Origin: Dehalococcoidia bacterium
GTDB taxonomy: Bacteria > Chloroflexota > Dehalococcoidia > Bin125
NCBI GenBank assembly: GCA_965218115.1
Contig: OZ244584.1
Span: 1,646,576-1,710,575, forward strand
Length of the DNA: 64,000 nt
Direction of reading: 5' to 3'
Notes under the pieces: generated by a model
What the model saw: only the letters and a program-made list of their open reading frames with translations
Told to the model about the DNA's origin: nothing
The model's database searches: none
In this document: positions 9,801 to 53,025 of the stretch, piece after piece
How positions within the stretch are numbered: position 1 is the stretch's first letter
Layout: each line of letters begins with the position of its first letter
Translations under genes and position numbers: made by a program

Positions 9801-10255
9801 ACGTCGCCGTCGAGCAGCCCGCGGGCCTGTTCGAGGTAGGCGGCGTGCACTTCGTCGAAGTCGACGTGCCCGAGGCTGGGCAGCTTGGTGCCGGGGCCGA
9901 TCGAGCCGATCGTGAAGCGCGGCGCGTCGGCGGTCGCGAAGCGATCGGCGGCGGCGCGGGCGTGGCGGGCGGCGGCGGCGTTGATCTCGCGTGCGCGCGC
10001 CGCGAGGTCGTATTCGCCAAGCGTGATCGAGGATGCGCCGAAGGTGTTGGTCAGCACCGCGTCCGCGCCCGCCTCGAGGTAGGAGACATGCAGCGCCTCG
10101 ATGGCCTGCGGGCAGCTCAGGTTGAGGATTTCGTTGCAGCCCTCGAGCCCCTCGAAGTCCGAGAGCGGGAGGTCCATCGCCTGGATGCCGGTGCCCGTGG
10201 CGCCATCGAGCACGACGGCGCGGCGGGCGGCGAGATCAAGCAGCTTGGGACGCAC
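6845..10255 (-). CDS. metH: Cobalamin-dependent methionine synthase
   Basis: 1136 aa with homocysteine S-methyltransferase, pterin-binding, B12-binding (…GDVHDIGKN…) and AdoMet-activation domains in the canonical order. Confidence 0.9.
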   Translation of the reverse strand: MRPKLLDLAARRAVVLDGATGTGIQAMDLPLSDFEGLEGCNEILNLSCPQAIEALHVSYLEAGADAVLTNTFGASSITLGEYDLAARAREINAAAARHARAAADRFATADAPRFTIGSIGPGTKLPSLGHVDFDEVHAAYLEQARGLLDGDVDALLVETVYDLLQGKAAILACRDALAERGLDTPVFATVTIETTGQMLVGSEIGAALTALAPLGLAGIGLNCATGPDLMHEPLRFLAESAPLPLLCSPNAGLPHVEDGRTVYDLTPDALADAQASFIRDYGVSIVGGCCGTTAEHVRAVKDAVQGVERARRDPRLPAAAASLFSAVPYRQDASFLIVGERANANGSRRFKRLLDEEQWEQMANVVRDQAGEGAHVADLCVDFVGRDGVPDMDELVRKARGLSTLPLMLDSTEPPVIEAGLKLLGGKAIVNSINLEDGGKRLDQTLSAAVRFGASVVALSIDEVGQARTCERKLAIAERLYGIATNDYGLPPEDLFFDALTMPLGSGQQDLRRDAIETLDAIREITRRFPRSQTILGVSNVSFGLSPAARQVLNSVFLQEAVERGLSAAIVHAAQILPAHQIDERHRRAALRLIHDEWVDGADPLTEFMALFEGVSLRRDESDIAELTVEERLHRRIVDGLREGLHDDLDEALEARSALEIINGLLLPAMQEVGDLFGAGKMQLPFVLQSAETMKSSVSWLEPHMEKADAAGKGTIVLATVRGDVHDIGKNLVDIILSNNGFSTVNLGIKQPIGPIIEAAIEHDADAIGLSGLLVKSTLVMKEDLDELNRRDLAERWPILLGGAALTRSYVEADLRERFEGRVWYGQDAFEGLRIMNALADGDPPDHAPVARRAKPRRAATALAEPRPIAPVAEIPVPPFWGTRVVRGLALAELFPYINETTLFRGQWGFRSRDGQDAWAELVEQEARPALRRLQAEAISSGILEPAVVYGYFPAQSSGDDLIVYRPGAEGELARFSFPRQDGKQGLCLSDYFSSVESGRTDAVGFHVVTMGRRVSRHTAELFAADRYQDYLYWHGFGVELAEALAEFWHRRMRAELGIADADGPTPQDLFKTTYRGARYSFGYPACPNLEDQVQLWRILEPERIGATLSEEWQIEPEQSTSALIVHHPDAHYFTI

Positions 10256-10377
10256 TTTGGGCCCTCCGCGTTATCGATTCAGCGTAGCTACGTTCGGCGG
10301 ACGCTCGTCTCAACACTCTGTCACGCGCGCGACGCGGGGGAGCGGGCCGACCGGCCTGCCAGGAAAGCTTTGAACAA

Positions 10378-10590
10378 CTCTCCCCCCGCGCTGCGGGGGG
10401 AGATGCCGAAGCCTGCCCCTGCGCAGGCAGGGGGCAGAGGGCGGCTGCGCCGCCGACTCACTGCCGTCGCTGTATCTGGTCGGACAGGATCGGGCCCCCC
10501 TCTGTCCCTACGGGACATCTCCCCCCGCTCTGCGGGGGGAGAGGAGATCCGGATTCCGCTGACCACTCAATGTGGTCAGCGGGGGGGGAG
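10378..10590. repeat. Cluster of GC-rich palindromic REP/MITE-like elements: family A core TCTCCCCCCGC..GCGGGGGGAGATGCCGAAG, plus the palindromes CCTGCCCCTGCGCAGGCAGGGGGCAGG and GCTGACCAC..GTGGTCAGC
   Basis: Inverted repeats were read directly. The same cores recur at ~30768, 31040, 37941, 47140-47580 and 50336. Confidence 0.7.
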
Positions 10591-10623
10591 AGCGGATCTG
10601 GCTTGTTCAGAGCTTTCCCAGGA

Positions 10624-11247
10624 TCACCGCTTGCCGCGCAGCAGGCCGCGCAGGCCGCTGCTGCGGAGCTGTTTGAGTTCGGCCTCTGCAGCGCTCGCGG
10701 ACTGCGTCGCCTTCTCGTGTTCGCGGCGCAGGCGGTTCATCTCGCGGCGCCGCTCGTCGAACGCGCTCTCGTGTTCCTCGACCACGCCGGCCGCGTGAGC
10801 CTCGGCGGCGGCGGCCCTCGCGGTGGCTTCTTCCGCCGTTGCTTCGGCGGCCGCCAGCCGCGTCTGCAGACCTGCAACCTGCTCTGCCAGCCGCGTCCGG
10901 TCGGCTTCGGCGGTGCTCAGCGATTCCTGCGCGGTGGCCAGCGCGGCCTCGGTCTGGGCCTTGCCTTCGGCGACGGCGGTCTGCACGGCCAGCTCCGATG
11001 TTGCACGCTCCAGCGCCGCGCTGAGCTCCGCGACCCGGGCGCGCAGCGGCTCGACATCCTGGCCGGCGGTCGCGAGCCGATCGGCCAGTTTCTCGGCGCG
11101 CGCCTGGGCTTCGGCCGCGCGCGCCGCGGCGGCGCGTTCGCGCCGGTCGTAGGCGTTGGCCCGTTCGACGGCCACGCGGCGGCCCTGTTCGGCGCGCTCG
11201 GCGACAAGCCCGGCATCTCGCAGTTGATCACGCAGACTGCGGCTCAC
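10624..11247 (-). CDS. Ala-rich coiled-coil protein (hypothetical)
   Basis: 207 aa with heptad-like A/E/L/R repeats, on the same strand as its neighbours. The overlapping plus-strand ORF is Gly/Arg-rich and looks like a GC artefact. Confidence 0.4.
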   Translation of the reverse strand: MSRSLRDQLRDAGLVAERAEQGRRVAVERANAYDRRERAAAARAAEAQARAEKLADRLATAGQDVEPLRARVAELSAALERATSELAVQTAVAEGKAQTEAALATAQESLSTAEADRTRLAEQVAGLQTRLAAAEATAEEATARAAAAEAHAAGVVEEHESAFDERRREMNRLRREHEKATQSASAAEAELKQLRSSGLRGLLRGKR

Positions 11248-12791: not shown

Positions 12792-13364
12792 TCAACGAGG
12801 AGGGGAAATCCGCTGAGCACTCTGCCATGAGGTCAGTCGCCGGACGCCCACGTTCCAGACAGCGAATGCTGCAAGGAACACACCCTTAGGAATCCCGCCG
12901 GACACAGTCTTCGGCTCCATTGCGTACCTCCAATCGACGAATGCAGTGTCCGCCGTGGCGAAGACCACGTCGATGTCGTGCTCGCTCCACCACGACGCCC
13001 ACTGTGCCTGTATGGCAGCAAACTCCGCTCGGACCTCGTCTTGTACGTCTTGGTCGAGCCGTTCGAACAGCGTATGTAGGCCATGCGTACCACGCTTGCC
13101 TTTGGGATCGGCTCCCGGATCTGTCTGTGCGATGAGTGTCTTGATCGCGATCTCCGCTCCGTGTGTCGTCAAGAGGATCGCCGACGTCTGGATGCCGAGT
13201 TCGCTCGGGTGTTCCTCCTTCGCATCGACGCGTTGCCTCATGTGTGGCTCCGCTTTTTCGATCACCATTTTCATTACTTCGAGCTCACCCAACAAGGATT
13301 TGAGCGCCAGCGGCACGTTCCAGTGAGGGTTTATGCTCGGTCCGCCCAGATACCAATGAGCCAC
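12792..13364 (-). CDS. Hypothetical protein in a lower-GC patch, with a possible HEPN-like Rx5H motif
   Basis: 190 aa. The region is visibly more AT-rich than the flanking genes. It contains KRGTHGLHTLFERL, and no confident family assignment was possible. Confidence 0.4.
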   Translation of the reverse strand: MAHWYLGGPSINPHWNVPLALKSLLGELEVMKMVIEKAEPHMRQRVDAKEEHPSELGIQTSAILLTTHGAEIAIKTLIAQTDPGADPKGKRGTHGLHTLFERLDQDVQDEVRAEFAAIQAQWASWWSEHDIDVVFATADTAFVDWRYAMEPKTVSGGIPKGVFLAAFAVWNVGVRRLTSWQSAQRISPPR

Positions 13365-13701
13365 CGTATGTCCCTTCGACTCAGATATATGATTATGCCA
13401 CAGCTCTCAACGATGTTGGGTGGCTTTCCGTTTGGATGATGCGACGTGCATGTCTCACCAGGTGCTGAGTCACATGCGTGTGGTGAGACCCCACAGATAG
13501 GATCGGCGACGTTGGGCTGGACGCTGCCGCCGCGGATGCCGGTGGCATCTGGGATGGTGTGCTCTGCTCGCTTATTGACACACAGAGCGCTGCGGCCTAC
13601 TCGCCGATGTACCAATATGATTCGTCGAGCTAGTCTAGCGTCTTGTCCCGCCTCGCCAACCAGGGGACTGTGAAGCGTTCGAGGGCCGCGACCAGACCTA
13701 T

Positions 13702-15687
13702 TCACATACTGAGGCCCAGATCGCGCAGGAAGGCTTCGGGGGAGGGGTCGCGGCCGAGGAAGCTGCGGACTAGCTGCTCGCCATCCTGGGCGCCGCCTCG
13801 TTCGAGGATTGCGGAGCGGTATTCACGGCCGACCGACTCTGGGGATGCCGCTGAGCCCTCGAATCTGGTGAACATGTCGTCGCCGTAGACGCGCGACCAG
13901 AGGTAGCCGTAGTAGCCCGCGTCGTAGCCGAAGAGGTGGCCGAAGCCGGCCTGGAAGTGCGTGTCGGGCGGGAAGGCGAAGCCGGTGATGGGGTGCAGCT
14001 CGCGCGCGATCGCGTCGGTGTCCTTGCTCGCGCCGGGGCCGTGGTAGGCGAGGTCGAGACGTGCGAAGTAGACCTGCCGCAGCGTGGCGATCCCGCTGCT
14101 CACGTACTTGGCCGCGATCAGCCGGTCGATCAGGTCGCCGGGCAGCGGGCTGCCGGTCTGCCAGTGGCGGCTGAAGCCGGCCAGCACGTCGCGCTCCCAG
14201 CACCAGTGCTCGAGCATCTGCGAGGGCGCCTCGACGAAGTCGCGTTCGACGCGGGTGCCGGAGAAGCGGGTGAAGCGCGCGCGCGTCAGCGTCTGGTGCA
14301 GGATGTGTCCGAACTCGTGGAAGAGCGTGACCACCTCGGTGTGGCGCAGCAGCGAGGGCGAGCTCTCGGTCGGCTTGGTGAAGTTGGCGACGATCGCCGA
14401 GACGGGTCGCTGGTAGCCGCCACCGGCGAGGTCGCGCCCGCCGCGCAGCGTGAAGGCGGCGGCGTGGCCGAACTTGCCGGGCCGGGGGTGTAGGTCCATG
14501 TAGAAGCGCGCCAACGTCTCGCCGCCGGCGTTGTCGACGATGTCGAAGGGCCGAGCGTCGGGATGCCAGGCGTCAGCCGCGGCGTCGTCGCGCGGCACGA
14601 ACGTCACGCCGACGAGCCGCTGGTAGACGTCGAACATGCCCTCCAGCACGGCATCGAGCGGGAGGTAGGCGGCGACCTCGAAGGGGTCGACCTGGTGCTG
14701 CTCGAGCAGGACGCGGTTGGTGTAGTAGCGCCAGTCCCAGATCTTGACGTCGCCCGACGCGCCGGTGCGCCGCTCCTGTTCGCGCTTGAGCAGGTCGAGG
14801 TCGGCTGCGAGCTTGGCCCCGAGCCGAGCTTCCAGGTCGGTGAGGAACTCCATCACGCTGTCGGGCGACTTGGCCATCCGCAGCTCGAGCACGTAGGCGG
14901 CCCAGGAGGGATAGCCGAGCCGCCGCGCAATCTCGTCGCGCACGCCGATCGCTTCTTCGAGCAGCGCGATGTTATCGCCGGCTGCCTTGTTGTGGTTCTT
15001 GAGAAAGATCTCGCGTCGCAGCTCGCCGTCGTCGGCGGAGTCGAGGAAGGGGTGCAGCTCGGGGTAGTCGAGCGAGACGCGGTAGCTGGTCGCGCCGTTG
15101 TGCTCGCTGCTCTGGAGCCGCTCGATGTACGAATCGGGCAGGCCACTGAGCTGGCCGCGCGAGACCGTGATGTGGTCCTCGTAGTCGTCGATGTTGCGGC
15201 GGAACTGGATGCCGAGCCGGACCAATCGCTCGTGCAGCTCCTGCACGGCGTCGCGTTCCTTGGCGGGCAGGTCGAAGCCGTTGCGACGGTAGTCGCGCAG
15301 GCAGAACTCGAGTAGCCGAGCGGCATCGTCGGGCAGGGCCTGAGTCTCGGCGCGGGTCGCGTAGGCCTTGAGCGCGCGGTCGATCTCCTCACGAAAGCCG
15401 AGGCCGCTGGCGAACAGATCGAGGCGCTCTTCCTGCTCGTGGGCCACGCTGCGCAGGGCGGGCTCGGCCGCGACCTGCGAGAGGAATCCGAACTGACCGC
15501 TGGCCTGTCCGATCAGGTCTGAGATGCCGTCGAGCGCGAGCACGGTGTTCTCGAAGTCGCGCCGGCCATCGGGTACCGAGGCGATCGCGTCGACGTGACG
15601 CTCGGCCTCGTCGATCGTCGCTGCGACCCCGCTGCGGATGGCGTCGGCGTCGATTTCGGACCAGTTCGGCGTGTCGAGCTCAGTCAT
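13702..15687 (-). CDS. M3-family metallopeptidase (oligopeptidase A / peptidyl-dipeptidase Dcp type)
   Basis: 661 aa with the HEFGHILH zinc motif and M3-like length and layout. Confidence 0.85.
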   Translation of the reverse strand: MTELDTPNWSEIDADAIRSGVAATIDEAERHVDAIASVPDGRRDFENTVLALDGISDLIGQASGQFGFLSQVAAEPALRSVAHEQEERLDLFASGLGFREEIDRALKAYATRAETQALPDDAARLLEFCLRDYRRNGFDLPAKERDAVQELHERLVRLGIQFRRNIDDYEDHITVSRGQLSGLPDSYIERLQSSEHNGATSYRVSLDYPELHPFLDSADDGELRREIFLKNHNKAAGDNIALLEEAIGVRDEIARRLGYPSWAAYVLELRMAKSPDSVMEFLTDLEARLGAKLAADLDLLKREQERRTGASGDVKIWDWRYYTNRVLLEQHQVDPFEVAAYLPLDAVLEGMFDVYQRLVGVTFVPRDDAAADAWHPDARPFDIVDNAGGETLARFYMDLHPRPGKFGHAAAFTLRGGRDLAGGGYQRPVSAIVANFTKPTESSPSLLRHTEVVTLFHEFGHILHQTLTRARFTRFSGTRVERDFVEAPSQMLEHWCWERDVLAGFSRHWQTGSPLPGDLIDRLIAAKYVSSGIATLRQVYFARLDLAYHGPGASKDTDAIARELHPITGFAFPPDTHFQAGFGHLFGYDAGYYGYLWSRVYGDDMFTRFEGSAASPESVGREYRSAILERGGAQDGEQLVRSFLGRDPSPEAFLRDLGLSM

Positions 15688-16643
15688 GCGGCGGCGACTC
15701 CCTCGGATTCCCAGGCGCGGTCGCGATGACCGAAGTCGAAGCGTCCGGGGTGCAGGATTTTGGCGATGATGTCAAGCGTTTCGACGACCCGCGGGCCCGG
15801 CCGATTGACGTACTGATTGCCGTCGATCAGCGCGACGCGGCCCTCGCGCACCGCGCGCAGCGTTGTCCAGCGCGGATTGGCGCGCAGCAGCTGCGCATCG
15901 CGACGGGTCTGCGGGAGGCCGTAGCCGTACGGCGCGACGATGATGATGTCGGGGTCGGCCGTCTCGAGATCGTCGATGCTGAAGTGCAGCGACTCGCCGC
16001 GGGGAGACCCGATCACGGGTCGGCCAGCGGCCAGCTCGATCAGCTCCATGGTCCAATGCCCGGCGGTCATCAGTGGGTCGGCCCACTCGACAACGGCGAC
16101 GCTGGGCCCCGTTGCTGAGCCGGAGGCCTGCTCCGAGATCTCGGTGATGCGGCGCCGGTAGCCCTCGACGGCGGCGCGTCCCAGATCAGCGCGGTCGAGC
16201 GCACCGGCCGTGCGTTGGATGTCGTCCCAGATATCGCCGAGCGAATTCGGCGCCAGTGAGACGATCCGTGATTCGATGCCGGTCAGCGTGGCGACGGCGC
16301 GTTCGACGTCGCGCAGCGAGACGGCGCAGACTTCGCATTGAGTCTGCGTGACGATGTGCGTGGGACGCAGTTCGCGGAGCAGCACAGTGTCGATCGCGTA
16401 GACGCCGAGCGCATCGGCCTCGTTGGCGTCGCGCGCCGCCCGGGCGAGCTCGCGGACGCGACGATCGATCTCCGCGCTGTCGGGGGTCGCGGCAAATCGC
16501 GGCGTGGTGAGGGCGGGCAGCGACTCCACGCCGGCGGGGAAGTCGCACTCGTGCGAACGGCCGACGAGCTGGTCCTGGAAGCCGAGCGCGCAGACGATCT
16601 CGGTCGCGCTGGGGAGCAGTGAAAAGATGCGTGGCTCGGTCAT
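15684..16643 (-). CDS. ABC-type periplasmic binding protein (Peripla_BP_2; cobalamin/iron-siderophore class)
   Basis: The conserved start is MTEPRIFSLLPSATEIVCALG. The ORF track extends further upstream, but the conserved start is preferred. No obvious signal peptide was seen. Confidence 0.6.
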   Translation of the reverse strand: MTEPRIFSLLPSATEIVCALGFQDQLVGRSHECDFPAGVESLPALTTPRFAATPDSAEIDRRVRELARAARDANEADALGVYAIDTVLLRELRPTHIVTQTQCEVCAVSLRDVERAVATLTGIESRIVSLAPNSLGDIWDDIQRTAGALDRADLGRAAVEGYRRRITEISEQASGSATGPSVAVVEWADPLMTAGHWTMELIELAAGRPVIGSPRGESLHFSIDDLETADPDIIIVAPYGYGLPQTRRDAQLLRANPRWTTLRAVREGRVALIDGNQYVNRPGPRVVETLDIIAKILHPGRFDFGHRDRAWESEGVAAA

Positions 16644-16700: not shown

Positions 16701-17027
16701 GTGGACTACGGCGTGCGCTGGTTGACCTAGAATGACGCATCTGAAGACGAACTCGCTGATCATGGTCTGTCGGTTGACAATGCGCTGGATGTGTTGGTGG
16801 GACAACCGCGGTTTCACGAGCAGAAGGCCAGCCTGGTGACGCGGGACGACGGAACCGTTCGTTGGCGGCGCCGACGGCTCCACATGATTGGGCGAGACGG
16901 TTCAGGGCGGTTCTTGGTGATCGTGATGGAATTTCCGGACGCGAACGGGGATGCGCATGTGGTGACTGGCTGGCCTGGCGACGGGTCGACGCGAGTCCGT
17001 TACCGTCGGCTTGGAGGGAGACTGTAA
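16701..17027 (+). pseudogene. BrnT-like (DUF497) toxin paralog interrupted by an in-frame TAG at 16728-16730. A GTG at 16791 could restart a truncated 78-aa product.
   Basis: Hand translation gives VDYGVRWLT*NDASEDELADHGLSVDNALDV…HVVTGWPGDGSTRVRY. This aligns across the stop with the intact paralogs at 26450-26788 and 36928-37263. Confidence 0.5.
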
Positions 17028-17266
17028 TGAGCTGTCAGGACGAGGATGTAAGCGCCCTCCAAGGGGAGGCGGTGCACGTTGACACTTCACAGTTTCAGGG
17101 TGTGAAGATCGAGGTGGAGTTCGGAGTGGACGAGATTCGATCGGTCTTCGCGGTTCGACGTCAGGGGGAGAAGACGACTTCGCTGATTCGCGAGGCAGTC
17201 CTCGCGCTGGTCAGGCAGCGGGAGTCGGACACCGCCGGAGCAGTGTTGCCTGACGCAGGCTCATGA
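17027..17266 (+). CDS. BrnA-like antitoxin paralog
   Basis: MSCQDEDVSALQGEAVHV…KIEVEFGVDEIRSVF…LIREAVLALVRQRE is homologous to 26202-26453 and 36677-36931. Its start overlaps the toxin stop (TAATG). Confidence 0.5.
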   Translation: MSCQDEDVSALQGEAVHVDTSQFQGVKIEVEFGVDEIRSVFAVRRQGEKTTSLIREAVLALVRQRESDTAGAVLPDAGS

Positions 17267-18216
17267 CGGACATTTCGCACTCGACGGTTCAGCTTTCGAC
17301 GGGCATCAACATGCATGTCGCCGAGGCTGGCAGCGGCCCGGCGGTCGTGATGTGCCACGGTTTTCCGGAGCTGTGGTACTCGTGGCGGCATCAGATCCCC
17401 GCGCTCGCGGAGGCGGGCTTCCGAGCGATCGCGCCCGATATGCGCGGGTACGGCGGGACCGACGCGCCGGAAGCGATCGAGGACTACACGCAGGAGGCGA
17501 TCTGCGGCGACATGGTCGCGCTGCTCGACGCGCTGGGTGAAGCGACGGCCGTGTTCGTCGGTCACGACTGGGGTGGCGCGGTGGTCTGGAGCATGGCCCA
17601 ACACCATCCCGATCGGGTGCGCGCGGTGGCCGGAATCAACACCCCGGCCTCGCAGCGCGCCCCGATCAGTCCGCTCGACGCCATGAAGATGGACCCCGGG
17701 CGTTTCGACTACCAGCTCTACTTCCAGGAGCCGGGCGTGGCCGAGGCGGAGCTGAGCGCGAATGTACGTCGCGTCTTCACGCTGCTGCTGCGCACATCCA
17801 AGCCCGAGGATGGGATGGATGCGCTGTCGGGCACGGCCGGGGTGCGCGAGCGCGGCGGGCTGCTCGTCGGCGCGCCTGAGACGGCGCCGCGCAGCATCAT
17901 GCTGACCGAGGAGGACCTGCAGACGTTCGTCGAGACATTCGAGCGCACGGGCTTCCGCGGCGGTCTCAACTGGTACCGCAATCACGGCCGCAACTGGGAG
18001 TGGAGCGGGACGCTGACCGAGGAGACGATCAGCCAGCCCGCGCTGATGGTCACCGCCGGCCGCGACCCGGTGCTGCTGCCCGCGATGTCGCACGGGATGG
18101 AGGACTGGATCCCCAACCTCAGCCGCGGCCACATCGAAGAGTGCGGCCATTGGACGCAGCAGGAGGAGCCCGACGAGCTGAATCGGATCCTCGTTGAGTG
18201 GCTAGACTCATTGTGA
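17263..18216 (+). CDS. Alpha/beta hydrolase of the epoxide-hydrolase-like family
   Basis: 317 aa with HGFPELWYSWRHQIP…DMRGYG and a GHDWGG nucleophile elbow. Confidence 0.8.
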   Translation: MTDISHSTVQLSTGINMHVAEAGSGPAVVMCHGFPELWYSWRHQIPALAEAGFRAIAPDMRGYGGTDAPEAIEDYTQEAICGDMVALLDALGEATAVFVGHDWGGAVVWSMAQHHPDRVRAVAGINTPASQRAPISPLDAMKMDPGRFDYQLYFQEPGVAEAELSANVRRVFTLLLRTSKPEDGMDALSGTAGVRERGGLLVGAPETAPRSIMLTEEDLQTFVETFERTGFRGGLNWYRNHGRNWEWSGTLTEETISQPALMVTAGRDPVLLPAMSHGMEDWIPNLSRGHIEECGHWTQQEEPDELNRILVEWLDSL

Positions 18217-18255
18217 CTCAAGAGCTTGGGCAGTACGAGGTAAAGGGAGTAGGCC

Positions 18256-19470
18256 ATGTCCACCCCCATGCTTCGTCGCTTGATTCTCAAGAGCTTTCGA
18301 AGTGTGCATGCGGCCGCGATCGATCTTGACAACCCGACGCTCCTAGTTGGGCAAAATGGCGCGGGCAAGAGCAACGTCGTCGACGCGCTTGCATTTCTGG
18401 CCGAGCTGATGTCGTCTCCGCTGTCCGCCGCATTCGACAGGCGGGGCGGAATTGCGGCAGTCCGGAATCGCCGCCTCGGACAAAGCCACCCACCGAACAT
18501 GGGATTCCGAGTGGACGTGTCGCAGCCGGACGTCAACACAAAGGAGGCTATGTACGCCTTCGACGTACGGGCACGAAAGAACTACGGCTTTGAAATAGTG
18601 AGAGAACAATGCGCCGTGGTCGACCTAGACGGGTTCACCACATGGTGGTTCGACCGGCGCCGTGATGGAGAGTTCAGCAGCAACGCAAGTTCGTTGAGCC
18701 CCGCATTGGAACCGGAAGCGCTAGCGCTTCCACTTATCGGCGGCGACTCGAGATTTAGACCCATCGTTCAGTTCCTCAGCGACATGCGAGTATACAGAAT
18801 AGAGCCGGTCGTGCTCAGGGAGATGCAGGAACCTGATAGCGGTTTGCGCCTCAACCCGGACGGTAGCAACACAGCGAGCGTGCTCAGAGAGATCGAACGG
18901 AACTCTCCTCACGGGCGTCAGCAGATACTAGCTTTGTTAGAACATATTGTCCCGAACACTGTCGATGTCAAGCCGAAAGCACACGGCAACAAGCTGGCAC
19001 TTGAGTTCGCTCAGCAATGGCCGGACGCACGGAGCATCAAATTCGAGGCCTTCAATATGTCCGACGGAACGCTTCGCGCACTCGGGCTACTGGCTGCGGT
19101 GTTCCAGCAGGCACGACCTTCCGTCTTGGTCATCGAGGAACCCGAAGCCACCATTCATCCCGGTGCGATCGAGGCCGTGCTGGATTTGTTAGAGCATGCG
19201 ACCAGAGATATGCAAGTTATCGCAACCACACATAGTCCAGACCTGCTCGATGCCAAGTGGATCGAAGATCGATTCCTCAAGATCGTCCGCTCGGAAAGGG
19301 GCGCCACAATGGTCTCCCCGGTTTCTCCAGAAGTCAGAAGCGCATTGCAACAGCACCTCATGGGAGCGGGGGAGCTTTTACGAGCGAATGCGCTGACCCC
19401 CATCAGCTCCAGCGATTTGTTCATCCGTGACCCCCGGCAGTTACGTCTTTTCGAGTCACTTTCGTCGTGA
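18256..19470 (+). CDS. ABC/AAA_21-type ATPase of the OLD/AriA-like family
   Basis: 404 aa with Walker A LLVGQNGAGKSN, the ABC signature NMSDGTLR, Walker B VLVIEEPEATIHP and the H-loop ATTHSP. An RBS (AAGGGAG) lies upstream. GC is visibly lower than in the flanks. Confidence 0.75.
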   Translation: MSTPMLRRLILKSFRSVHAAAIDLDNPTLLVGQNGAGKSNVVDALAFLAELMSSPLSAAFDRRGGIAAVRNRRLGQSHPPNMGFRVDVSQPDVNTKEAMYAFDVRARKNYGFEIVREQCAVVDLDGFTTWWFDRRRDGEFSSNASSLSPALEPEALALPLIGGDSRFRPIVQFLSDMRVYRIEPVVLREMQEPDSGLRLNPDGSNTASVLREIERNSPHGRQQILALLEHIVPNTVDVKPKAHGNKLALEFAQQWPDARSIKFEAFNMSDGTLRALGLLAAVFQQARPSVLVIEEPEATIHPGAIEAVLDLLEHATRDMQVIATTHSPDLLDAKWIEDRFLKIVRSERGATMVSPVSPEVRSALQQHLMGAGELLRANALTPISSSDLFIRDPRQLRLFESLSS

Positions 19471-20105
19471 AGATAGTCCCAGTAGTGGAGGGGGAGGGTG
19501 AAGTTAAGGCAGTGCCTATCTTATTGCGCCGGATGATTGCACTGGTAGAGGCGTTCGAATCGATACAGGTCGGCCGGCCTATCCGCAAACCGCGCAGCCA
19601 ACTAACTAAGCGCGAGGGAATGGTTGAGGTCTTGAAGCTTGCCCGCATTCAGGGGGCGGACTCGGTTTTGTGCCTCTTTGATAGCGATGGTGTATGCCCA
19701 GTCAATCTGGCAGCGTGTTTACTGAACTGGGCGAGGGAGGAAGCATCGGACTTGGACTGTCATGTGGTAGTTGCCCATCAAGAATACGAGGCGTGGTTTT
19801 TGGCATCTATTCCTTCGCTTCGAGCGCACCCTGCGATGAGAGACGATGCAGAGTGCCATCCGAATCCAGAAGCGCGTCAAGGCGCGAAAGAACAGCTACA
19901 TAGCCGCATGCAGACTGGCAGCAGTTATTCACCAACGGCTCACCAAGCGGCATTCACCGCCAGCTTTGACATGGCATCCGCATACGCACATTGTCGATCA
20001 TTTCGAAAATTGACTAGCGCATTCGGCCAGATTCTCAGTAGGGTCGATTCGAACGTTGCTCACTGGCCACCAAGAGAATGGTCGGACACGATCATCCCCG
20101 AGTAA
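19467..20105 (+). CDS. TOPRIM-like small protein (DUF4276-like), partner of the upstream ATPase
   Basis: 212 aa with a GTG start overlapping the ATPase stop (GTGA). The N-terminus KIVPVVEGEGE resembles the TOPRIM catalytic Glu strand, CLFDSDG resembles the DxD motif, and HQEYEAWFL resembles the conserved DUF4276 HEFEALLF region. Confidence 0.6.
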   Translation: MKIVPVVEGEGEVKAVPILLRRMIALVEAFESIQVGRPIRKPRSQLTKREGMVEVLKLARIQGADSVLCLFDSDGVCPVNLAACLLNWAREEASDLDCHVVVAHQEYEAWFLASIPSLRAHPAMRDDAECHPNPEARQGAKEQLHSRMQTGSSYSPTAHQAAFTASFDMASAYAHCRSFRKLTSAFGQILSRVDSNVAHWPPREWSDTIIPE

Positions 20106-20139
20106 AGACGGTCGCGTCGTACATCCGGGCTCGACTCCT

Positions 20140-21180
20140 TCAGCCTGCCAGTGGTTCGATGTCTCGGCTTTGCCCCGTGCTCCAGGACTCCCAGACGGCA
20201 TCCGTAAAGCGCATGTAGCGGACGCCGTCCTCGAAGTTTGTAAGGGTCACTGGGGCGCCATCGCGGACTGAGTCGATGAAGTCGCGCTCGACCTGCCAGC
20301 CGTGGGCGGTGCCGGGGTCCGGCTCGATGGCGGTGAGCTCGTCGCCGTGGCGTTGCCACTCGCCGGTGTCGCCGAAGCGCCACTGGATCCGGCCGGCGGT
20401 GCCGTAGACCTCGATCGAGGGCGGTCCGGGGGCGCCCTCGGTCACGGCGCTCACCCGGTAGGTGCAGCGCGCGCCGTTGGCCATGTCGGCGAAGATGCCG
20501 AGGCTGTCGGGAATCTCGATCGACATCCGCTCGCCGCTCTCGCCGTCGACCCGCGACGTGACGAAGGTCCGCGCGTGCGCGGTGACCCACGTGGTGTCGC
20601 CCAGCCAGCGCTGGATCGTCTCGTTGAAGATGCCCAGCTGCATCATGTTCTTGCCCGAGTAGTCGGTCCGGTGGCGCCAGTGCAGCGGGCCCTCGGGGTC
20701 GAGCCCGCCGCCGTTGAGCAGGGTCAGATGCACCTCGAGGATTGAGCCCAACGAGCCGTCGGCGCAGATCCGCTTGATCGTCTTGCCCAGGCGGAAGTCG
20801 AACGGGGCCGGCACAAGCTGAGCAACCAGGTCGGGATGCGCGCGGCTGGCCGCCAGCATCTGTTCGGCCTGCGCGGCGTCGTTCGCCATCCGCGCTTCGC
20901 AGAGCACGTGCTTGCCGGCGGTGAGTGCGGCCGCGGTGAACTCGAGATGGCGGTAGGGCCAGGTGCCGATGCAGACGGCGTCGACGGCGGGGTCGTCGAG
21001 CAGCTGCTCGACGCTGTCCGAGACGCGCGGGATGCCGTACTCCGTGGCCACGGCCTCGCCGCTCGCGCGCGAGCGGTTCACGACGTTGACGATCTCGACG
21101 TCATCGATCTCGTGAAAGCCGGGAATGTGTCGCAGCCGCTGATTGCCGCCTGCCCCGATCAAGCCGATTCCGAAGGCCAT
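20140..21180 (-). CDS. Gfo/Idh/MocA-family oxidoreductase
   Basis: 346 aa with the N-terminal Rossmann motif GIGLIGAGG and the family layout. Confidence 0.8.
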   Translation of the reverse strand: MAFGIGLIGAGGNQRLRHIPGFHEIDDVEIVNVVNRSRASGEAVATEYGIPRVSDSVEQLLDDPAVDAVCIGTWPYRHLEFTAAALTAGKHVLCEARMANDAAQAEQMLAASRAHPDLVAQLVPAPFDFRLGKTIKRICADGSLGSILEVHLTLLNGGGLDPEGPLHWRHRTDYSGKNMMQLGIFNETIQRWLGDTTWVTAHARTFVTSRVDGESGERMSIEIPDSLGIFADMANGARCTYRVSAVTEGAPGPPSIEVYGTAGRIQWRFGDTGEWQRHGDELTAIEPDPGTAHGWQVERDFIDSVRDGAPVTLTNFEDGVRYMRFTDAVWESWSTGQSRDIEPLAG

Positions 21181-21934: not shown

Positions 21935-22593
21935 GCGACGAGTCGCCCTTTCGGCCCGAACACTTCCGCAAGTACGACGAGTCCGACGACGCGCGGTTCT
22001 ATGTCGAGCCGCGCTTCGTCGCGCACATCGACGAGACCGCGATCGCGGCGCTCTCTGAGTACTACGCGCAGGTCCTGAAGCCCGAGGACCGGGTGCTCGA
22101 CCTGATGTCGTCGTGGGTCTCGCATCTCCCGGCGGGCTACCAGCCTGCGCGCGCCGTCGGCCTGGGGATGAACGCCGATGAGCTGTCGCGCAACCCGGCG
22201 CTCGACGACTGGGTGGTGCACGACCTCAATCGCGAGCCGACGCTGCCGTTCGAGGACGCCAGTTTCGACGCGGTGCTGATCGCGGTCTCGGTCCAATACC
22301 TCCAGCGTCCTTTGGAGGTCTTCGCGGAGATCGCTCGTGTGCTCGAGCCGGGCGGCCGCTGTGTCGTCTCGTTCTCGAACCGCTGCTTCCCGACCAAGGC
22401 GGTGGCGCTCTGGCAGGGCCTCAACGATTCAGGCCACGTCCAGGCGGTGGGCGCCTACTTCCAGCATGCGGGCGGCTTCGAGGCCGCCGAATGGCTCGAG
22501 CGCAAGACGCCCGGCACGGACCCGCTCTACATCGTGCAGGCGCGGACGCCGGTGGGGAACGAAGCTACTGAGCGGACGCGGTCGCCCGCTTAA
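21931..22593 (+). CDS. Class I SAM-dependent methyltransferase
   Basis: 220 aa with VLDLMSSWVSHLP…FDAVLIAVSVQYL…LEPGGRCV, which are methyltransferase motifs I and post-I. Confidence 0.7.
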   Translation: MSDESPFRPEHFRKYDESDDARFYVEPRFVAHIDETAIAALSEYYAQVLKPEDRVLDLMSSWVSHLPAGYQPARAVGLGMNADELSRNPALDDWVVHDLNREPTLPFEDASFDAVLIAVSVQYLQRPLEVFAEIARVLEPGGRCVVSFSNRCFPTKAVALWQGLNDSGHVQAVGAYFQHAGGFEAAEWLERKTPGTDPLYIVQARTPVGNEATERTRSPA

Positions 22594-23125
22594 GATTGAG
22601 CGTGAGCAACAGCTCCAGCATCTCGTCGTCGCCGATATCGGGGGGCCAGCCGTAGGCGGCGAAGACGGCGGCGTCGAGTGTTGCGTGGAGGTTGGCGAGC
22701 CAGGTGGGGCGTTCGTTGTAGAGATTGGTCAGCGTGCGCTTGCGGAGCTGTTTTTCGGCGTGTTCGTCGACGGGCAGCAGACGCGGCGGCAGCGAGGGAA
22801 TCACGTCGGGCTCCTCGCGCACCCACTCGGGCGGGTTGAGCCAGAGGCGACGCTTCGAGTCCAGCTCGCGCGCCGCCTCGCCGATGGCGTCGCGGTGGGC
22901 GCGTTGTTCGGGGGTCAGCGCATCATCGGGTGTGTTGAGCGGCCAGGGGAATGGGAAGGTCTCGAACGTGGTGGTCGGCGTGTAGCGAGGGCGGTCCTCA
23001 AGGCTGTCTCCCATTCGCAAGGACCAGAATTCGTACGCAGGTGAGTCTGGCATCGAGGCAAAGTAGACGACGCATATGTCGCGCGGACGCCGCGTCACAT
23101 GCAGCCCGTTGACCCATGAGCCCAC
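22565..23125 (-). CDS. C-terminal fragment of an MmeI/PglX-family (type IIG/IIL restriction-modification, BREX-type) enzyme
   Basis: 186 aa with TFETFPFPWP…LTNLYNERPTWLANLHATLDAAVFAAYGW…DDEMLELLLTLNLKRA, matching the conserved C-terminus of MmeI-family proteins. GC is high, as in host genes. Confidence 0.6.
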   Translation of the reverse strand: MGSWVNGLHVTRRPRDICVVYFASMPDSPAYEFWSLRMGDSLEDRPRYTPTTTFETFPFPWPLNTPDDALTPEQRAHRDAIGEAARELDSKRRLWLNPPEWVREEPDVIPSLPPRLLPVDEHAEKQLRKRTLTNLYNERPTWLANLHATLDAAVFAAYGWPPDIGDDEMLELLLTLNLKRATASAQ

Positions 23126-23270
23126 GCCTCAGGCTCCCTCCGTAGGTCACCCGCATCCCACCCGCCGCCCGAACAGGCACTACTTCGACATGCAACGCAG
23201 CGCTAGGCAGTCAGAAAGGGTCATCAGTCCCGTGGAAACACTCACATTCCACCAGGCGCATACATTTATC

Positions 23271-24194
23271 TCACGGATTTCTGTTCGTAAGGTCCTTTAA
23301 GCGACGCGTCAACATCTCTTTGAGCCCTGTCATGTTGTCGTACTCAGGGCAATTGTATTCACTTAAGTCGAAGTGGAGCTTAGTCCCTCGTTTCCGGTAT
23401 AGTATCACCCTTTTGTCAAGCGCATGAGCGTATCCGACTTCGTAGTACACGTTCGGCTTTTCATTGGTCAAGTCAGCCATGAGGAATTCGGACTTGTTGA
23501 TCCTTTCTCTGACTTTATCTGTTATTCTGCCCTCGTGTTCGATTTCATCAGCACGCACAGCGGCTATTGAGAAATCACCGAAGCAATCGCGGATCGTATT
23601 GTAAGTGTCTTCGAGACCAGGATCGTCCCGATCAATGGCCATCATGACGAATGCCGAGTTTGGTTCGTACGATGTGGTGGATTGGGGGTTGGCTCGCCAC
23701 TCTTCAGTGACGAAGGTTGGGGAGACATCGAGGAGTTCAACCAAGCCCAGTATATTTTCGATGTCGCGCTGGTAATTGCGAAGTGCGATCTTGGGATGAA
23801 CGGGCGTCGTATCTGATTGACTGGCGGGTTGAAATCCGAGCACTTCGCCCTCATCGTGCAATACTTCCGGTTCCGAAAACTCGTAAAGCCGCAACCGAAG
23901 TGATGCGCGCGTTGACTTTGTCCACGTTCCAAGGTCTCGGTGGTCAACATCGGTCACCAGGGCCGAATACTTGAGTGAGTTCGCGATTGGCTTGATCGCC
24001 TTGAGGATCTGGCTCTGGAGGTCGGCGGACTGACTTTTCAAATCATCGTCCAGCTGGGACCAGAAATGGTCAGGCTCGATTTCCCAATACGGACGCTCAT
24101 CGTCATCCAGGTGCATTGCACGTTTGAAGAAGGTTCCGCCGTCGTCTCGGATCTGGGCGAATAGGCTGCGGTAAGGGGTGAAGTCGAGAGTCAT
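23271..24194 (-). CDS. Protein with a C-terminal nucleoside 2-deoxyribosyltransferase-like / TIR-like (SLOG-superfamily) domain and an unassigned N-terminal domain
   Basis: 307 aa. The C-terminus reads FVMMAIDRDDPG…LMADLTNEKPNVYYEVGYAHALDKRVILY, which follows the NDT pattern (…D.gt.fEvGyA.algKpvi.l). GC is clearly lower than in the flanking fragments. Confidence 0.55.
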   Translation of the reverse strand: MTLDFTPYRSLFAQIRDDGGTFFKRAMHLDDDERPYWEIEPDHFWSQLDDDLKSQSADLQSQILKAIKPIANSLKYSALVTDVDHRDLGTWTKSTRASLRLRLYEFSEPEVLHDEGEVLGFQPASQSDTTPVHPKIALRNYQRDIENILGLVELLDVSPTFVTEEWRANPQSTTSYEPNSAFVMMAIDRDDPGLEDTYNTIRDCFGDFSIAAVRADEIEHEGRITDKVRERINKSEFLMADLTNEKPNVYYEVGYAHALDKRVILYRKRGTKLHFDLSEYNCPEYDNMTGLKEMLTRRLKDLTNRNP

Positions 24195-24372
24195 CTTGTT
24201 CCGCCGATGGGAAAGGTGCGCGTCTTCGGCAAGTCATTCAGCGTCATGTTGGTGGAGTTGCTGAGCATTTCCCACGCCTAAGCCTATCCAGTTCTCCCTC
24301 GCGGCCCCCCTGCGGTTCCGCTGAACGAAACCGCACCGCGCCTTCCGTGAGTGGGCTTCAATCGCCCGAACC

Positions 24373-25155
24373 CTAACACTGATTCAGGTGACAGAGGCGA
24401 ACGCGCTTTGCCGTGTCGGCTTCCGGCGGCGGCTTTCGGCTCATCAAGTCAACGTTGTCGGGTTTGTCGGCGCGCGATCCGATCAGGTCGGTGATCAGGC
24501 GCTTGGGCAGCAGACCAACGTCCTCGGCGAAGAGGCAGAACAGCACACGATTGAGGAAGTGCGCGACCGGTTCGGGTTCGTGTCCGCGTTGCTGCATGGA
24601 GCGGGCGAGTTCGGCGAACCGCGAGGCCGCCGCGTCCGTGACCTCATCGGGGGTCTGTCGCGGACGCAGCGCCTGCGGCTCGCTCATCACTGCGCGCAGG
24701 ATGCGCAGCGCTCCCGCGGTCTTGTCCCCGCCGGCAGCAAGGTCTTCGAGCGTCAGCGAGTGGATGGTGGGACGGGTGTTGGTGAAGTTGGTGTGGACCT
24801 CGATCCGGTCCATGTCGCTGACGACGAGCACGGGCGGATTCTCGAGGTCTTCGCGGTAGTCAAGCAGTTGCCGATAGGCGGCGGCGAGGTCGGCGTGGTC
24901 GCCCTTGTACTCCCAACCGAAGTGTCGGCGCTTCCAGACGTCAGCCCAACCCTGGTTCCCGGTGCTCAGTCGTTCGGCGCCAGCCTCGAAGGTGTACCGC
25001 TCACCGGTCGGGTCGGCCTCGTTTGGGGTCTGGACGCCGAGCATGCGGCAGAGGTCGATGAAGTGCTCCTGCGAGGAGGCACGCTCGCGACGGGCGTTGT
25101 CGCGCCACTTGGCGGCGAATTGGGCAGCGGAGAGTGATCCAGGCGAAGCCGCCAT
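24373..25155 (-). CDS. N-terminal fragment of an MmeI/PglX-family enzyme: PD-(D/E)xK nuclease domain plus helical spacer, with the methyltransferase core missing
   Basis: 260 aa with AAQFAAKW…FIDLCRMLGV…ADVWKRRHFGWEYKG (D…ExK), VLVVSDMDRIEVHTNFTNT and RVLFCLFAEDVGLLP. All are hallmarks of the MmeI-family N-terminus and helical domain. It ends with a stop where the methyltransferase domain should begin. Confidence 0.65.
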   Translation of the reverse strand: MAASPGSLSAAQFAAKWRDNARRERASSQEHFIDLCRMLGVQTPNEADPTGERYTFEAGAERLSTGNQGWADVWKRRHFGWEYKGDHADLAAAYRQLLDYREDLENPPVLVVSDMDRIEVHTNFTNTRPTIHSLTLEDLAAGGDKTAGALRILRAVMSEPQALRPRQTPDEVTDAAASRFAELARSMQQRGHEPEPVAHFLNRVLFCLFAEDVGLLPKRLITDLIGSRADKPDNVDLMSRKPPPEADTAKRVRLCHLNQC

Positions 25156-26114: not shown

Positions 26115-26201
26115 GGGGAATTCCTCTCGCCGCTGGAGCGGTGAATTTCAAGTCCACGTGTCTGAGGCAGGGTAGCAGCGCGGCGTGCGACGACCGTGCA
26201 A

Positions 26202-26453
26202 TCAGTCGGCAGCGTGCAGACCATCGCCCGACTTGGCCTCGGCTTCGCGGTCCGCGGTTTCGAGCGCTGCGCGCTTGATGAAACGAATCAGTGGTCCACG
26301 GGGGTGTCGGCCACGGAGGCGTTCGACCTCCTCGCGATTGAATTCAATCTCGATGCCCAGCACGCCGGGACCCTTCTTCGCAGGGTCGTAGGGAATCTCT
26401 TCCGCATCGGCGATCGGCGTGTCAATGTGCAGCTTGCTGTGTTGCTTGGTCAT
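26202..26453 (-). CDS. BrnA-like antitoxin
   Basis: 83 aa downstream of the BrnT-like gene with a 4-nt overlap. It has the conserved …IEIEFNREEVERLR…RFIKRAALE…REA…. Confidence 0.5.
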   Translation of the reverse strand: MTKQHSKLHIDTPIADAEEIPYDPAKKGPGVLGIEIEFNREEVERLRGRHPRGPLIRFIKRAALETADREAEAKSGDGLHAAD

Positions 26454-26788
26454 CGCCTGCGCATCCTTCCTCCAGGTTGATGGTATCGCGTTCGTTCCTC
26501 ATCGTCAGAAATCCAACCGGTCACCACATGGGACATCCGATCCTGGTCGGAAGGCTCCAGGACGAAGGTCAACAGGAGGCCGGTTCTGTCGGGCCCGATC
26601 ATTTTCACTCGCTCCGGCTGAAAGCGAACGTTTCCCAGCTCGTCTTCGCGTTGCCTCGCTGGTTGGGCAAAGTACTTCGCCGGTCCTTCCCAGACGTCAT
26701 CGGCGTCATCGAGCGACAGCCCGTGCGCCCAGAGTTCATCATCGCTCGCATGGTTTCCGGTCACACCGCCGTATGGGATCTCAGGCAT
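26450..26788 (-). CDS. BrnT-like (DUF497) toxin
   Basis: 112 aa with …DELWAHGLSLDDADDVW… and …MIGPDRTGLLLTFVLEP…SHVVTGWISDDEERTRY. It follows the BrnT pattern (HG[ILV]xFxxA…; R[VI]IS.R.A…E…Y) and has toxin-first gene order, as in brnTA. Confidence 0.55.
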   Translation of the reverse strand: MPEIPYGGVTGNHASDDELWAHGLSLDDADDVWEGPAKYFAQPARQREDELGNVRFQPERVKMIGPDRTGLLLTFVLEPSDQDRMSHVVTGWISDDEERTRYHQPGGRMRRR

Positions 26789-26863
26789 TTCGATTCAAAC
26801 TTGATGACACGACGAAGCCCAGCCTTGCGGCTGGGCCTCGTGTTGAGCGCCGTTGTTGGAGAA

Positions 26864-35252: not shown

Positions 35253-35260
35253 GTGCCGAT

Positions 35261-35881
35261 GTGAAGGCCGACCCGATCAGGCGACGTAGAACGGTGCGGT
35301 TCGATACGAGCATTCTCGTTGCGGCCATTCCTGTGGCACTAGCCGGATCTGCATACGCAGCATCACGGCCGGATACGACCACGGCGCTCTCTTACTACAG
35401 GGCGGGTGCCGATCTCAAACTTGCAGGTGAGGCAAACGCGATGTCTGTGATCCCGAAATCTGGCCCTTCACCGGTGGTCGTCGTAGGACCGGCACTCTAC
35501 GTAAGAACAACAGAGTCTATCGCGATGATCGTGTTTGAGTGCACGCCGGACGCTCTTGGGGACTTTGTCGCACTCGGCCCGCGCTCTTGTCTTGCGGGAT
35601 CAGCCGTCTCGAGCTTGGCATTGCCATCTGACAAAGCAGGCCACACTAACCACGCGGCTACTTTCACCACCGATGCAAGAGCGCTTGGAGATTTCGCCAG
35701 ATTTAGTGATGTTGAGCGGCGAAATCTCCTGCGCACCGCCCACGAACACCACTCAGAAGCTAGCACACCGATTGTGATCAGTCCAACACTCGCATCGCCG
35801 CCGCGTCCGATTGGTGTCATGTATATTTCAGGGAACTTGAAGAAGTCAGCAATCCTCAACTACTTTCTCAAGTGTCGCTGA
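35261..35881 (+). CDS. Hypothetical, probably exported, protein in a lower-GC patch
   Basis: 206 aa with an N-terminal RRRR…hydrophobic…AYAAS signal-like segment. No family was recognised. Confidence 0.35.
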   Translation: MKADPIRRRRTVRFDTSILVAAIPVALAGSAYAASRPDTTTALSYYRAGADLKLAGEANAMSVIPKSGPSPVVVVGPALYVRTTESIAMIVFECTPDALGDFVALGPRSCLAGSAVSSLALPSDKAGHTNHAATFTTDARALGDFARFSDVERRNLLRTAHEHHSEASTPIVISPTLASPPRPIGVMYISGNLKKSAILNYFLKCR

Positions 35882-52963: not shown

Positions 52964-53025
52964 AACCGGGTGACCGCTCGGAAGATCATCGGGTCATCAC
53001 CGCGATCGGTGTGGTGGAGGACACG

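Follow-up and report, generated by a model that had tools for sequence, protein, structure and literature searches.

Is a low-GC pair of genes wedged between two metabolic genes of a Dehalococcoidia bacterium a new kind of antiphage system, or a copy of one already described? The pair lies at positions 18,256 to 20,105 of the 64,000-nucleotide stretch that we analyzed (contig OZ244584.1 of GenBank assembly GCA_965218115.1, positions 1,646,576 to 1,710,575, forward strand; hereafter, the window), and consists of a gene for an ABC ATPase (gene 1) followed by a gene for a small DUF4276 protein (gene 2; Table 1). A first-pass annotation had put this cassette forward as a PARIS-like candidate defense system with ATPase and nuclease in separate genes, and had held that an ATPase with a DUF4276 partner was not an experimentally characterized variant. 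Judging from profile matches, the cassette is almost certainly a standalone member of HEC-01, a candidate antiphage family. What is new here is the behavior of its chromosomal site, which in related genomes holds the window cassette, a HEC-01 subtype that is inverted and deeply divergent, or nothing.

Assignment of the cassette to HEC-01

In Pfam, gene 1 matches AAA_21 (E-value 1.2e-31) and AAA_15 (1e-17), and gene 2 matches DUF4276 (PF14103; 5.1e-16, 59.9 bits versus a gathering score of 30.2) over profile positions 1-189 of 192; all 49 gene 2 family members likewise give a DUF4276 match. Compared with PADLOC-DB, gene 1 aligns through residues 3-385 of 404 with positions 6-385 of 399 of the HEC-01A profile PDLC04178 (1e-108), and gene 2 through residues 1-191 with positions 1-193 of 197 of the HEC-01B profile PDLC04196 (7.1e-61). 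For both proteins these are far better matches than those of the AriA, Old, GajA, AbiLi or mad3 profiles. The HEC-01 arrangement, with A and B adjacent and on the same strand, is found in the window pair, whose genes overlap by 4 nucleotides (nt).

HEC-01 stands for Hma-embedded candidate 01, an ABC ATPase with a TOPRIM-like partner; the predicted metal-binding site of HEC-01B aligns with that of the OLD protein of Burkholderia, BpOLD (Payne, Hughes, Fineran & Jackson 2024, bioRxiv 10.1101/2024.01.29.577857). The cassette thus adds a copy to an already catalogued candidate system, and the pair is not an unnamed one. The view that a DUF4276 partner had escaped experimental characterization is out of date, because both HEC-01, which has been published, structurally analyzed and tested with phages, and Mad3-Mad4, which is required in MADS, are already in the literature. 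That the cassette might prove to be a system known under another name, an outcome that the first-pass annotation had allowed for, is in part what we found. In the passages of a cold-seep study that deal with HEC-01, one randomly chosen representative of the family gave E. coli B protection from one or more of the phages T4, T5 and T7 (Nat Commun 2026, PMC12881386).

Layout and conservation of the pair

Homologues of gene 1 number more than 3,700 at E ≤ 1e-10, and those of gene 2 more than 600, of about 209 amino acids (aa) and all with DUF4276. A lookup of gene 1 by exact match in an assembly index gave no record. A scan of one genome per species yielded 80 loci, which span Chloroflexota, Acidobacteriota, Planctomycetota, Actinomycetota, Pseudomonadota, Latescibacterota, Verrucomicrobiota, Elusimicrobiota and others. 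In all 80, the gene immediately upstream of the DUF4276 gene, on the same strand, encodes a gene-1-like ATPase (the ATPase match is a single piece in 78 and split in 2), and so the pair is conserved as a unit in other genomes. Stop and start codons overlap by 4 nt in 56 of these loci, and there is some overlap in 61. The distance matrices of the two proteins are correlated (Mantel r 0.76, reached by none of 999 permutations), which indicates that the two genes are inherited together. The ratio of nonsynonymous to synonymous substitution rates (dN/dS) is 0.12-0.14 for gene 1 and 0.13-0.15 for gene 2, compared with 0.07-0.17 for the flanking genes; the cassette is intact and under purifying selection.

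The two-gene layout read earlier from the sequence, including the GTG start that overlaps the stop of gene 1, is correct to the coordinate, and so is its position between an epoxide-hydrolase-like alpha/beta hydrolase gene and a convergent GFO/Idh/MocA oxidoreductase gene. The motifs pointed out in gene 1 (LLVGQNGAGKS, SDGTLR, VLVIEEPE and TTHSP) and in gene 2 (KIVPVVEGEGE, CLFDSDG and HQEYEAWFL) are all present in the translations and fall on invariant or nearly invariant columns of alignments of 46 gene 1 and 49 gene 2 homologues. The cassette is indeed low in GC (0.562 versus 0.676 and 0.683 in the flanks), and at third codon positions its genes have 0.65 and 0.55, versus 0.88 and 0.905 in the flanking genes. 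Gene 1 is preceded by a Shine-Dalgarno-like motif, found at the same position 5' of its homologue in 45 of the 80 loci, and the sequence 5' of the gene 2 start contains none; this combination fits translational coupling. Around the cassette, a search returned no promoter-like sites, a chance-level number of terminator-like sites (4 versus 2.6 expected), and direct or inverted flanking repeats at chance level only. Apart from sequence of shared neighboring genes, no conserved noncoding ends emerged across the 80 loci, and no integrase, transposase, flanking repeats or tRNA is present at the cassette site.

The DUF4276 gene and its ATPase follow directly after a DUF1156 gene in 16 of the 80 loci, and a DUF499 ATPase gene lies downstream in 13. 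We take these neighbors to be the Hma (helicase-methylase-ATPase) methylase and ATPase; the two DUF names are absent from the text of Payne and colleagues. With this assignment, they would agree with the discovery of HEC-01 inside Hma systems. The other loci, about four fifths, have contexts without a DUF1156 or DUF499 neighbor, as in the window.

In phage and plasmid collections, the family was found at one weak IMG/VR locus, in one phage record and on three large Streptomyces plasmids, the copies on the latter being named "AAA family ATPase" and "DUF4276 family protein" by RefSeq. At one of these plasmid loci (L095; L numbers are our designations of loci), the pair adjoins other defense-like genes. 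Starting instead from the ATPase side, we found the pair in one of two homologues, L091 and not L092. In L091 (4001-8313), a second AAA_21 ATPase (372 aa) and a DUF3226 protein (209 aa, Pfam 1.5e-63) are encoded 0.7 kb past the pair, after one flavodoxin-like gene. DUF3226, which two members of the DUF4276 alignment match weakly, may likewise be a family of small partner proteins. In L092 (4001-7524), the gene after the ATPase encodes an HsdM-like N6 methyltransferase, and the one after that a Schlafen/AlbA_2-HATPase protein.

A polymorphic chromosomal site

Two metagenomic contigs (L081 and L082) follow the gene order of the window through flanks and cassette, with nt identity of about 90-92%. 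Orthologues of the flanking hydrolase led us to further relatives of the site. Three loci (L084, L088 and L089; backbone 83-87% aa identity) have an empty site, with a spacer of 99-101 nt between the hydrolase and GFO genes. In L083 and L090 (backbone 93-94% aa) and in L087 (81-85%), the site holds a different pair in inverted orientation, which we call type B. Its ATPase (374-388 aa) is about 26% identical to gene 1, and its DUF4276 protein (211-215 aa) has the canonical HEFEALLF block and no BLAST similarity to gene 2; this pair is also HEC-01 in PADLOC (PDLC04175, 1.4e-113; PDLC04188, 2e-61). The window type, or type A, occurs at the same site in two loci labeled as Dehalococcoidia metagenome-assembled genomes, at 76% and 66% identity (ATPase first) in L001, where the backbone is at 78-81%, and at 52% and 42% in L063, where it is at 75-76%. 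At least four alleles are therefore seen, namely, three type A lineages (ATPase identity 92%, 76% and 52%) and the inverted type B (26%). In blastn comparisons, homology to L083 and L084 ends at window position 18203 and resumes at 20172-20179, and L063 has the same breakpoints. In L085, L086 and L093, the right flank of the hydrolase orthologue differs, and these contexts are uninformative on the site.

The site behaves as a polymorphic hotspot of the kind typical of defense genes. We rejected a very recent acquisition of type A: the divergence of the L001 allele matches that of the backbone, and because the two diverge in step, type A has probably long occupied the site. The low GC of the cassette would then be a persistent property and not the sign of a very recent import. 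We also considered that the site may be a long-lived balanced polymorphism filled only by ATPase and DUF4276 pairs, in which the cassettes would have an intrinsic, nuclease-assisted means of replacing one another (e.g., homing-like gene conversion driven by the Toprim nuclease) and would not be passive hotspot cargo, an idea that we regard as quite unlikely. In any case, closely related genomes (92-96% identity in backbone genes) with allele A, an inverted B or none between identical breakpoints constitute a natural experiment on the turnover of defense genes, and the allele series could be used for uncultured Dehalococcoidia-like bacteria.

Two observations concern divergence within the allele types. 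Between L081 and L082, the cassette (8790-10639 in both) has a synonymous divergence (dS) of 0.044-0.050, versus 0.15-0.18 in the flanking genes, and this lower value suggests a recent recombinational exchange between the lineages. Between the type B pairs of L083 (6981-8749) and L090 (5981-7749), the DUF4276 proteins are 63% identical, the ATPases 86%, and the backbone genes 94-96% at the nt level; the putative effector of type B thus diverges or reassorts much faster than sensor and genome.

The comparison of sites bears on the possibility that the pair is not autonomous but an accessory effector of a methylation-based system, either orphaned or cooperating with the nearby MmeI-type IIG enzyme. 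At two filled sites (L081 and L083), an MmeI-type gene lies intact at a distance of 3-4 kb, and two loci with an empty site (L084 and L088) have none, although this co-occurrence is confounded by phylogeny, because three clades were sampled. The DUF1156 genes directly before the pair in a fifth of the loci, if they are Hma methylases as we presume, point the same way, as opposed to the four fifths without such neighbors. In the window itself, the MmeI gene is broken and the pair is still under purifying selection. As for precedents, the methylase gene mad5 of MADS can be deleted only if mad2 or mad3 is deleted too, its loss being otherwise lethal, and deletion of mad3 or mad4 reduces defense (10.1101/2023.03.30.534895), whereas HEC-01 was treated as an independent embedded system by its discoverers (Payne et al., 10.1101/2024.01.29.577857). 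On balance, we think an accessory role of this sort improbable.

Predicted structures and the Toprim question

The AlphaFold2 model of gene 1 has a pLDDT score (predicted local distance difference test) of 87.4 and represents the head of an ABC ATPase, in which the first insert is beta-rich. Among solved folds, Foldseek places it nearest to SMC and Rad50 heads and the Septu/retron protein PtuA (E about 1e-13), and the best PDB match of gene 1 by sequence is the OLD-family protein 6p74 (4e-8). The proximity to SMC and Rad50 heads, together with weak NCBIfam matches to RecF and RecN in the Walker A region only, might indicate a housekeeping ATPase-nuclease of DNA repair or recombination, similar to SbcCD, RecF or RecN. 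We consider this highly improbable, given that the RecF and RecN scores are 30.8 and 23.6 versus cutoffs of 172 and 408, that defense-system profiles are the best by some 80 orders of magnitude, and that the cassette has atypical codon usage. Moreover, close relatives are polymorphic both for its presence and for the replacement of one allele by another, and the empty sites among them effectively exclude a housekeeping repair function.

The gene 2 model (pLDDT 92.3, predicted template modeling score 0.89) consists of alternating beta-alpha units. A conserved Glu (E8) comes after strand beta1 and a DxD (D72/D74) after strand beta3 (residues 66-72), so that in the model strands and acidic residues follow one another as one would expect in a Toprim fold. 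DUF4276 and RloB have indeed been proposed as new Toprim members with a conserved E and a DxD, Mad4 being a DUF4276 protein (Menshen study, PMC12065111). Our own tests of the Toprim link were only partly supportive. Foldseek returned generic flavodoxin-like matches for gene 2 in the PDB (lumazine synthase, PurE), none of them at E ≤ 1e-3. A PDB sequence search with the DUF4276 profile gave nothing real, and we found no solved DUF4276 structure. Aligned by hhalign with the C-terminal region of the OLD-family protein encoded elsewhere in the window, the DUF4276 alignment reached a probability of 1.4% against the single sequence and 2.5% against a 147-sequence profile; a bridge from DUF4276 to the OLD Toprim appears to be absent at the level of sequence. 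The literature that we searched contained no biochemistry of DUF4276 proteins, and this lack of both structures and biochemistry is, with the series of A, B and empty alleles, what mainly gives the cassette its modest interest.

Besides DUF4276, gene 2 has a subthreshold match to RloB (PF13707; E 1.3e-3, 19.3 bits versus a gathering score of 31.5), and a weak RloB match recurs in 11 of its 49 family members. Since RloB-type Toprim toxins are neutralized by a cognate AAA/ABC ATPase (NetFlax, PMC10440598), this raises the question of whether the pair could be a selfish addiction module similar to toxin-antitoxin systems, with the DUF4276 nuclease as toxin and the ATPase as antitoxin, persisting through post-segregational or anti-deletion effects and having no dedicated antiphage role. 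The tight coupling of the two genes would suit such a module, and so would the negative outcome of the first E. coli defense test of HEC-01. Nonetheless, relatives with empty sites have tolerated its loss, the Streptomyces plasmid pair keeps company with defense-like genes, mad3 and mad4 are required for phage defense, and one HEC-01 representative, as the cold-seep study has it, did protect against phage. Toxin-antitoxin behavior and abortive infection are, besides, not mutually exclusive, as in PARIS. We therefore hold a purely selfish module to be unlikely, to about the same degree as the accessory role discussed above.

Proposed mechanism and its weight

We consider a role in defense, through a nuclease controlled by the ATPase, to be the probable explanation of the cassette, with ample room for doubt. 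The proposal derives by analogy from PARIS and RloB-type pairs, in which an ATPase acts as sensor or antitoxin and a Toprim protein as effector or toxin. An oligomer of the ATPase would bind the small nuclease and keep it inactive. A phage-derived cue would be sensed through the variable inserts of the ATPase and would lead to the ATP-dependent release or activation of the nuclease. The acidic cluster of gene 2 (E8, D72/D74 and E106/E108) could then, with a divalent metal, cut host or phage nucleic acid, for which tRNA, other RNA or DNA are candidate substrates, and infection would be stopped abortively.

In favor of this explanation are the intactness of the catalytic motifs, the strictness with which the two genes are paired, their translational coupling, the purifying selection on them and the hotspot behavior of the site. 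Several points weigh against it. In the first E. coli assay, HEC-01 gave protection against none of the tested phages (10.1101/2024.01.29.577857), and the protection described in the cold-seep study (PMC12881386) belongs to another HEC-01 representative and is not quantified in the passages concerned. The ATPase homologue of L092 (426 aa, 55% identical to gene 1) has no DUF4276 partner. The nuclease activity of gene 2, a physical contact between its product and the ATPase, and trigger and target alike are inferred by analogy. Finally, the standalone pair may not be autonomous, because Mad3-Mad4, and possibly the loci with DUF1156 or DUF499 neighbors, work inside methylation-based systems. As for the first-pass annotation, its proposal of the ATPase and DUF4276 pair as a defense candidate stands insofar as the pair is coupled, conserved as a unit and carried on an insert of atypical composition that fits a defense islet, and does not stand as regards the novelty of the pair or a PARIS likeness beyond analogy.

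Other defense-like and variable loci in the window

Downstream of the cassette, the window contains a broken restriction-modification gene of the MmeI type (Table 1). Its N-terminal fragment (ORF 24373-25155; ORF, open reading frame) has MmeI_N and MmeI_hel domains and matches PADLOC REase_MTase_IIG (2.6e-57), and its C-terminal fragment (ORF 22565-23125) gives a PADLOC match at 6e-35. In L081, where the gene is intact (976 aa), the central methyltransferase part occupies 14102-15916; in the window, this part is replaced by a segment at 22992-24466 with a GC content of 0.48-0.55. Within the replacing segment, a 307-aa ORF (23271-24194, minus strand) encodes a C-terminal nucleoside-deoxyribosyltransferase/TIR-like domain (Pfam 3.5e-5; PADLOC TIR effector 4.7e-10). 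The core of one defense-type gene thus appears to have been replaced by another.

A second OLD-family gene, reported earlier at 57868-59640, is present as a single-gene ATPase-nuclease. Its OLD-like_TOPRIM match (1.1e-3) is below the gathering score. For the C-terminal region there are 1,663 homologues at E ≤ 0.001, most of which lie in proteins about 560-590 aa long. The gene lies in an islet of its own with GC 0.57-0.60, versus 0.68-0.75 in the flanks, between tRNA-Asn and tRNA-Gln/tRNA-Leu.

Upstream of the hydrolase gene there are two small ORFs (16791-17027 and 17027-17266, plus strand; 78 and 79 aa), which overlap at TAATG and have the Shine-Dalgarno sequence GGAGGGAG. A longer paralogous pair is found at 36928-37263 and 36677-36931 (minus strand), with 43% identity over 75 aa (E 9e-18) for the first ORF, which in the upstream copy is without about 33 N-terminal residues; the second ORF matches weakly (E 0.006). 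Two more antitoxin-like copies are at 37331-37555 and 37552-37860 (minus strand). The architecture of the small-ORF pair makes it a candidate for the decayed toxin-antitoxin locus of which the first-pass annotation spoke; no Pfam family matched the upstream ORFs or their paralogues. The hydrolase itself (17263-18216, plus strand) shares 53-58% identity with the soluble epoxide hydrolase of vertebrates, EPHX2, in the C-terminal epoxide-hydrolase domain of the latter, which is unusually high for a bacterium-vertebrate pair.

A second variable spot (window 12801-13800) lies between an Iso_dh gene (isocitrate/isopropylmalate dehydrogenase family) and a Peptidase_M3 gene. In the window it is a low-GC patch with a 190-aa ORF (12792-13364, minus strand) that has no family match, and in L083 (1390-2709) and L087 (at the start) it holds an N6_N4 methyltransferase-HNH fusion gene (PADLOC MTase_II, 2.6e-57). 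Further low-GC patches are at 35201-36400, 52601-53600 and 26201-26800 (minimum 0.555-0.60 versus a window mean of 0.671); ORF 35261-35881 (206 aa), in the first of these, has no Pfam match.

Table 1. Features of the cassette, its site and other defense-like loci, in window coordinates
Feature	Position	Strand	Remarks
Variable segment between conserved flanks	18204-20175	.	Includes the last 4 hydrolase codons and about the last 12 GFO/Idh/MocA codons
Shine-Dalgarno-like GGGAG	18245-18249	+	6 nt 5' of the gene 1 ATG; read from sequence
Gene 1, ABC ATPase (HEC-01A; AAA_21/AAA_15)	18256-19470	+	404 aa, ATG start
Walker A GQNGAGKS, gene 1 residues 32-39	18349-18372	+	Within LLVGQNGAGKS; G32, N34, G35, G37, K38, S39 invariant in 46 homologues
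ABC signature SDGTLR, gene 1 residues 269-274	19060-19077	+	All six residues invariant, 46 homologues
Walker B/D-loop VLVIEEPE, gene 1 residues 290-297	19123-19146	+	E294, E295, P296, E297 invariant, 46 homologues
H-loop TTHSP, gene 1 residues 324-328	19225-19239	+	T324 to P328 invariant, including H326, 46 homologues
Gene 2, DUF4276 protein (HEC-01B), predicted Toprim-like metal-dependent nuclease	19467-20105	+	212 aa, GTG start
GTGA, gene 2 start codon overlapping gene 1 TGA stop	19467-19470	+	4 nt
Gene 2 E8 codon	19488-19490	+	Directly after strand beta1 (residues 2-7 in model); nearly invariant, 49 homologues
Gene 2 D72-S73-D74 codons (DxD)	19680-19688	+	Directly after strand 66-72; D72 invariant, D74 is D or N, 49 homologues
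Gene 2 E106-Y107-E108 codons (EYEAWFL block)	19782-19790	+	After strand 97-103; E106 and E108 invariant, 49 homologues
Broken MmeI-type IIG restriction-modification gene	22534-25155	-	
Single-gene OLD-family ATPase-nuclease	57766-59640	+	Probable ATG 57868; AAA_21 8.8e-19; PADLOC Old 8e-19
tRNAs around the OLD-family gene	56942-57017, 59706-59779, 59781-59867		

Comparison with known systems

PARIS resembles the cassette in being a two-gene operon with a split ABC ATPase and Toprim nuclease; there, the nuclease stays bound to the ATPase scaffold until a trigger sets it free, and tRNA is cleaved (PMC11464382), which makes PARIS the best-understood model of how such a pair might work. The same paper groups "AbiL and MADS3-4" with systems in which an ABC ATPase is joined by a TOPRIM protein, and annotates DUF4276 partners in its ATPase tree. 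The differences lie in both proteins. AriB is a DUF4435 protein (PF14491), whereas gene 2 matches only DUF4276 and RloB at E ≤ 1, and no AriB model is among its 13 PADLOC matches. On gene 1, the AriA model PDLC02979 covers residues 5-50 only (2.5e-18), the AriA model PDLC02980 aligns exactly where the generic Pfam AAA_21 profile does, and the HEC-01A profile surpasses the AriA models by more than 75 orders of magnitude; nor is an AriA chain among the top 50 Foldseek neighbors of the gene 1 model. PARIS is, moreover, often found on phage satellites and prophages, unlike the ATPase/DUF4276 family, of which the phage and plasmid collections that we searched contain almost no copies. With no DUF4435 and no AriA-specific match, we reject membership in PARIS, and the "PARIS-like" label holds as an analogy only.

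In MADS of Pseudomonas aeruginosa SMC4386, Mad3-Mad4 are likewise an AAA_15/21-type ABC ATPase and a DUF4276 protein, both required for defense, but they are part of an 8-gene methylation-associated operon, and there are no other mad genes near the window pair. The NCBIfam MAD3 model scores 120.3 bits on gene 1 versus a cutoff of 420, and no NCBIfam model matches gene 2. We reject membership in MADS on account of this score and the metabolic flanking genes. AbiL (AbiLi/AbiLii) and RloA/RloB also combine an ABC ATPase and a small Toprim-like protein, in their case of the RloB type, and RloB is the sole other Pfam family that gene 2 touches. The PADLOC AbiLi match to gene 1 is partial (9e-26), there is no AbiLii match, and, with the RloB score of gene 2 below the gathering score, the pair is not a member of AbiL/RloAB. 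In OLD proteins (class 1, P2 Old; class 2, Gabija GajA), a single polypeptide carries both ATPase and nuclease, whereas in the window they are separate genes; gene 2 has no Pfam match to OLD-like_TOPRIM (PF20469), and a fused OLD is rejected as well.

With HEC-01, the pair shares its two-gene architecture, in which the ABC ATPase comes first and a small Toprim-like DUF4276 protein second. The family was discovered within Hma, which is no requirement for its detection, and the window copy stands alone between metabolic genes. Since the pair is already HEC-01 in PADLOC, and since Mad3-Mad4, AbiL and PARIS have been published, the catalog of defense systems gains little from it. HEC-01 spans many subprofiles, however, and the subtype of the window (404 and 212 aa) has about 26% ATPase identity to the subtype PDLC04175/PDLC04188 that occupies the same site in relatives. 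Compact, conserved and modeled with pLDDT values of 87 and 92, this subtype is a reasonable target for a first mechanistic study of the DUF4276 branch.

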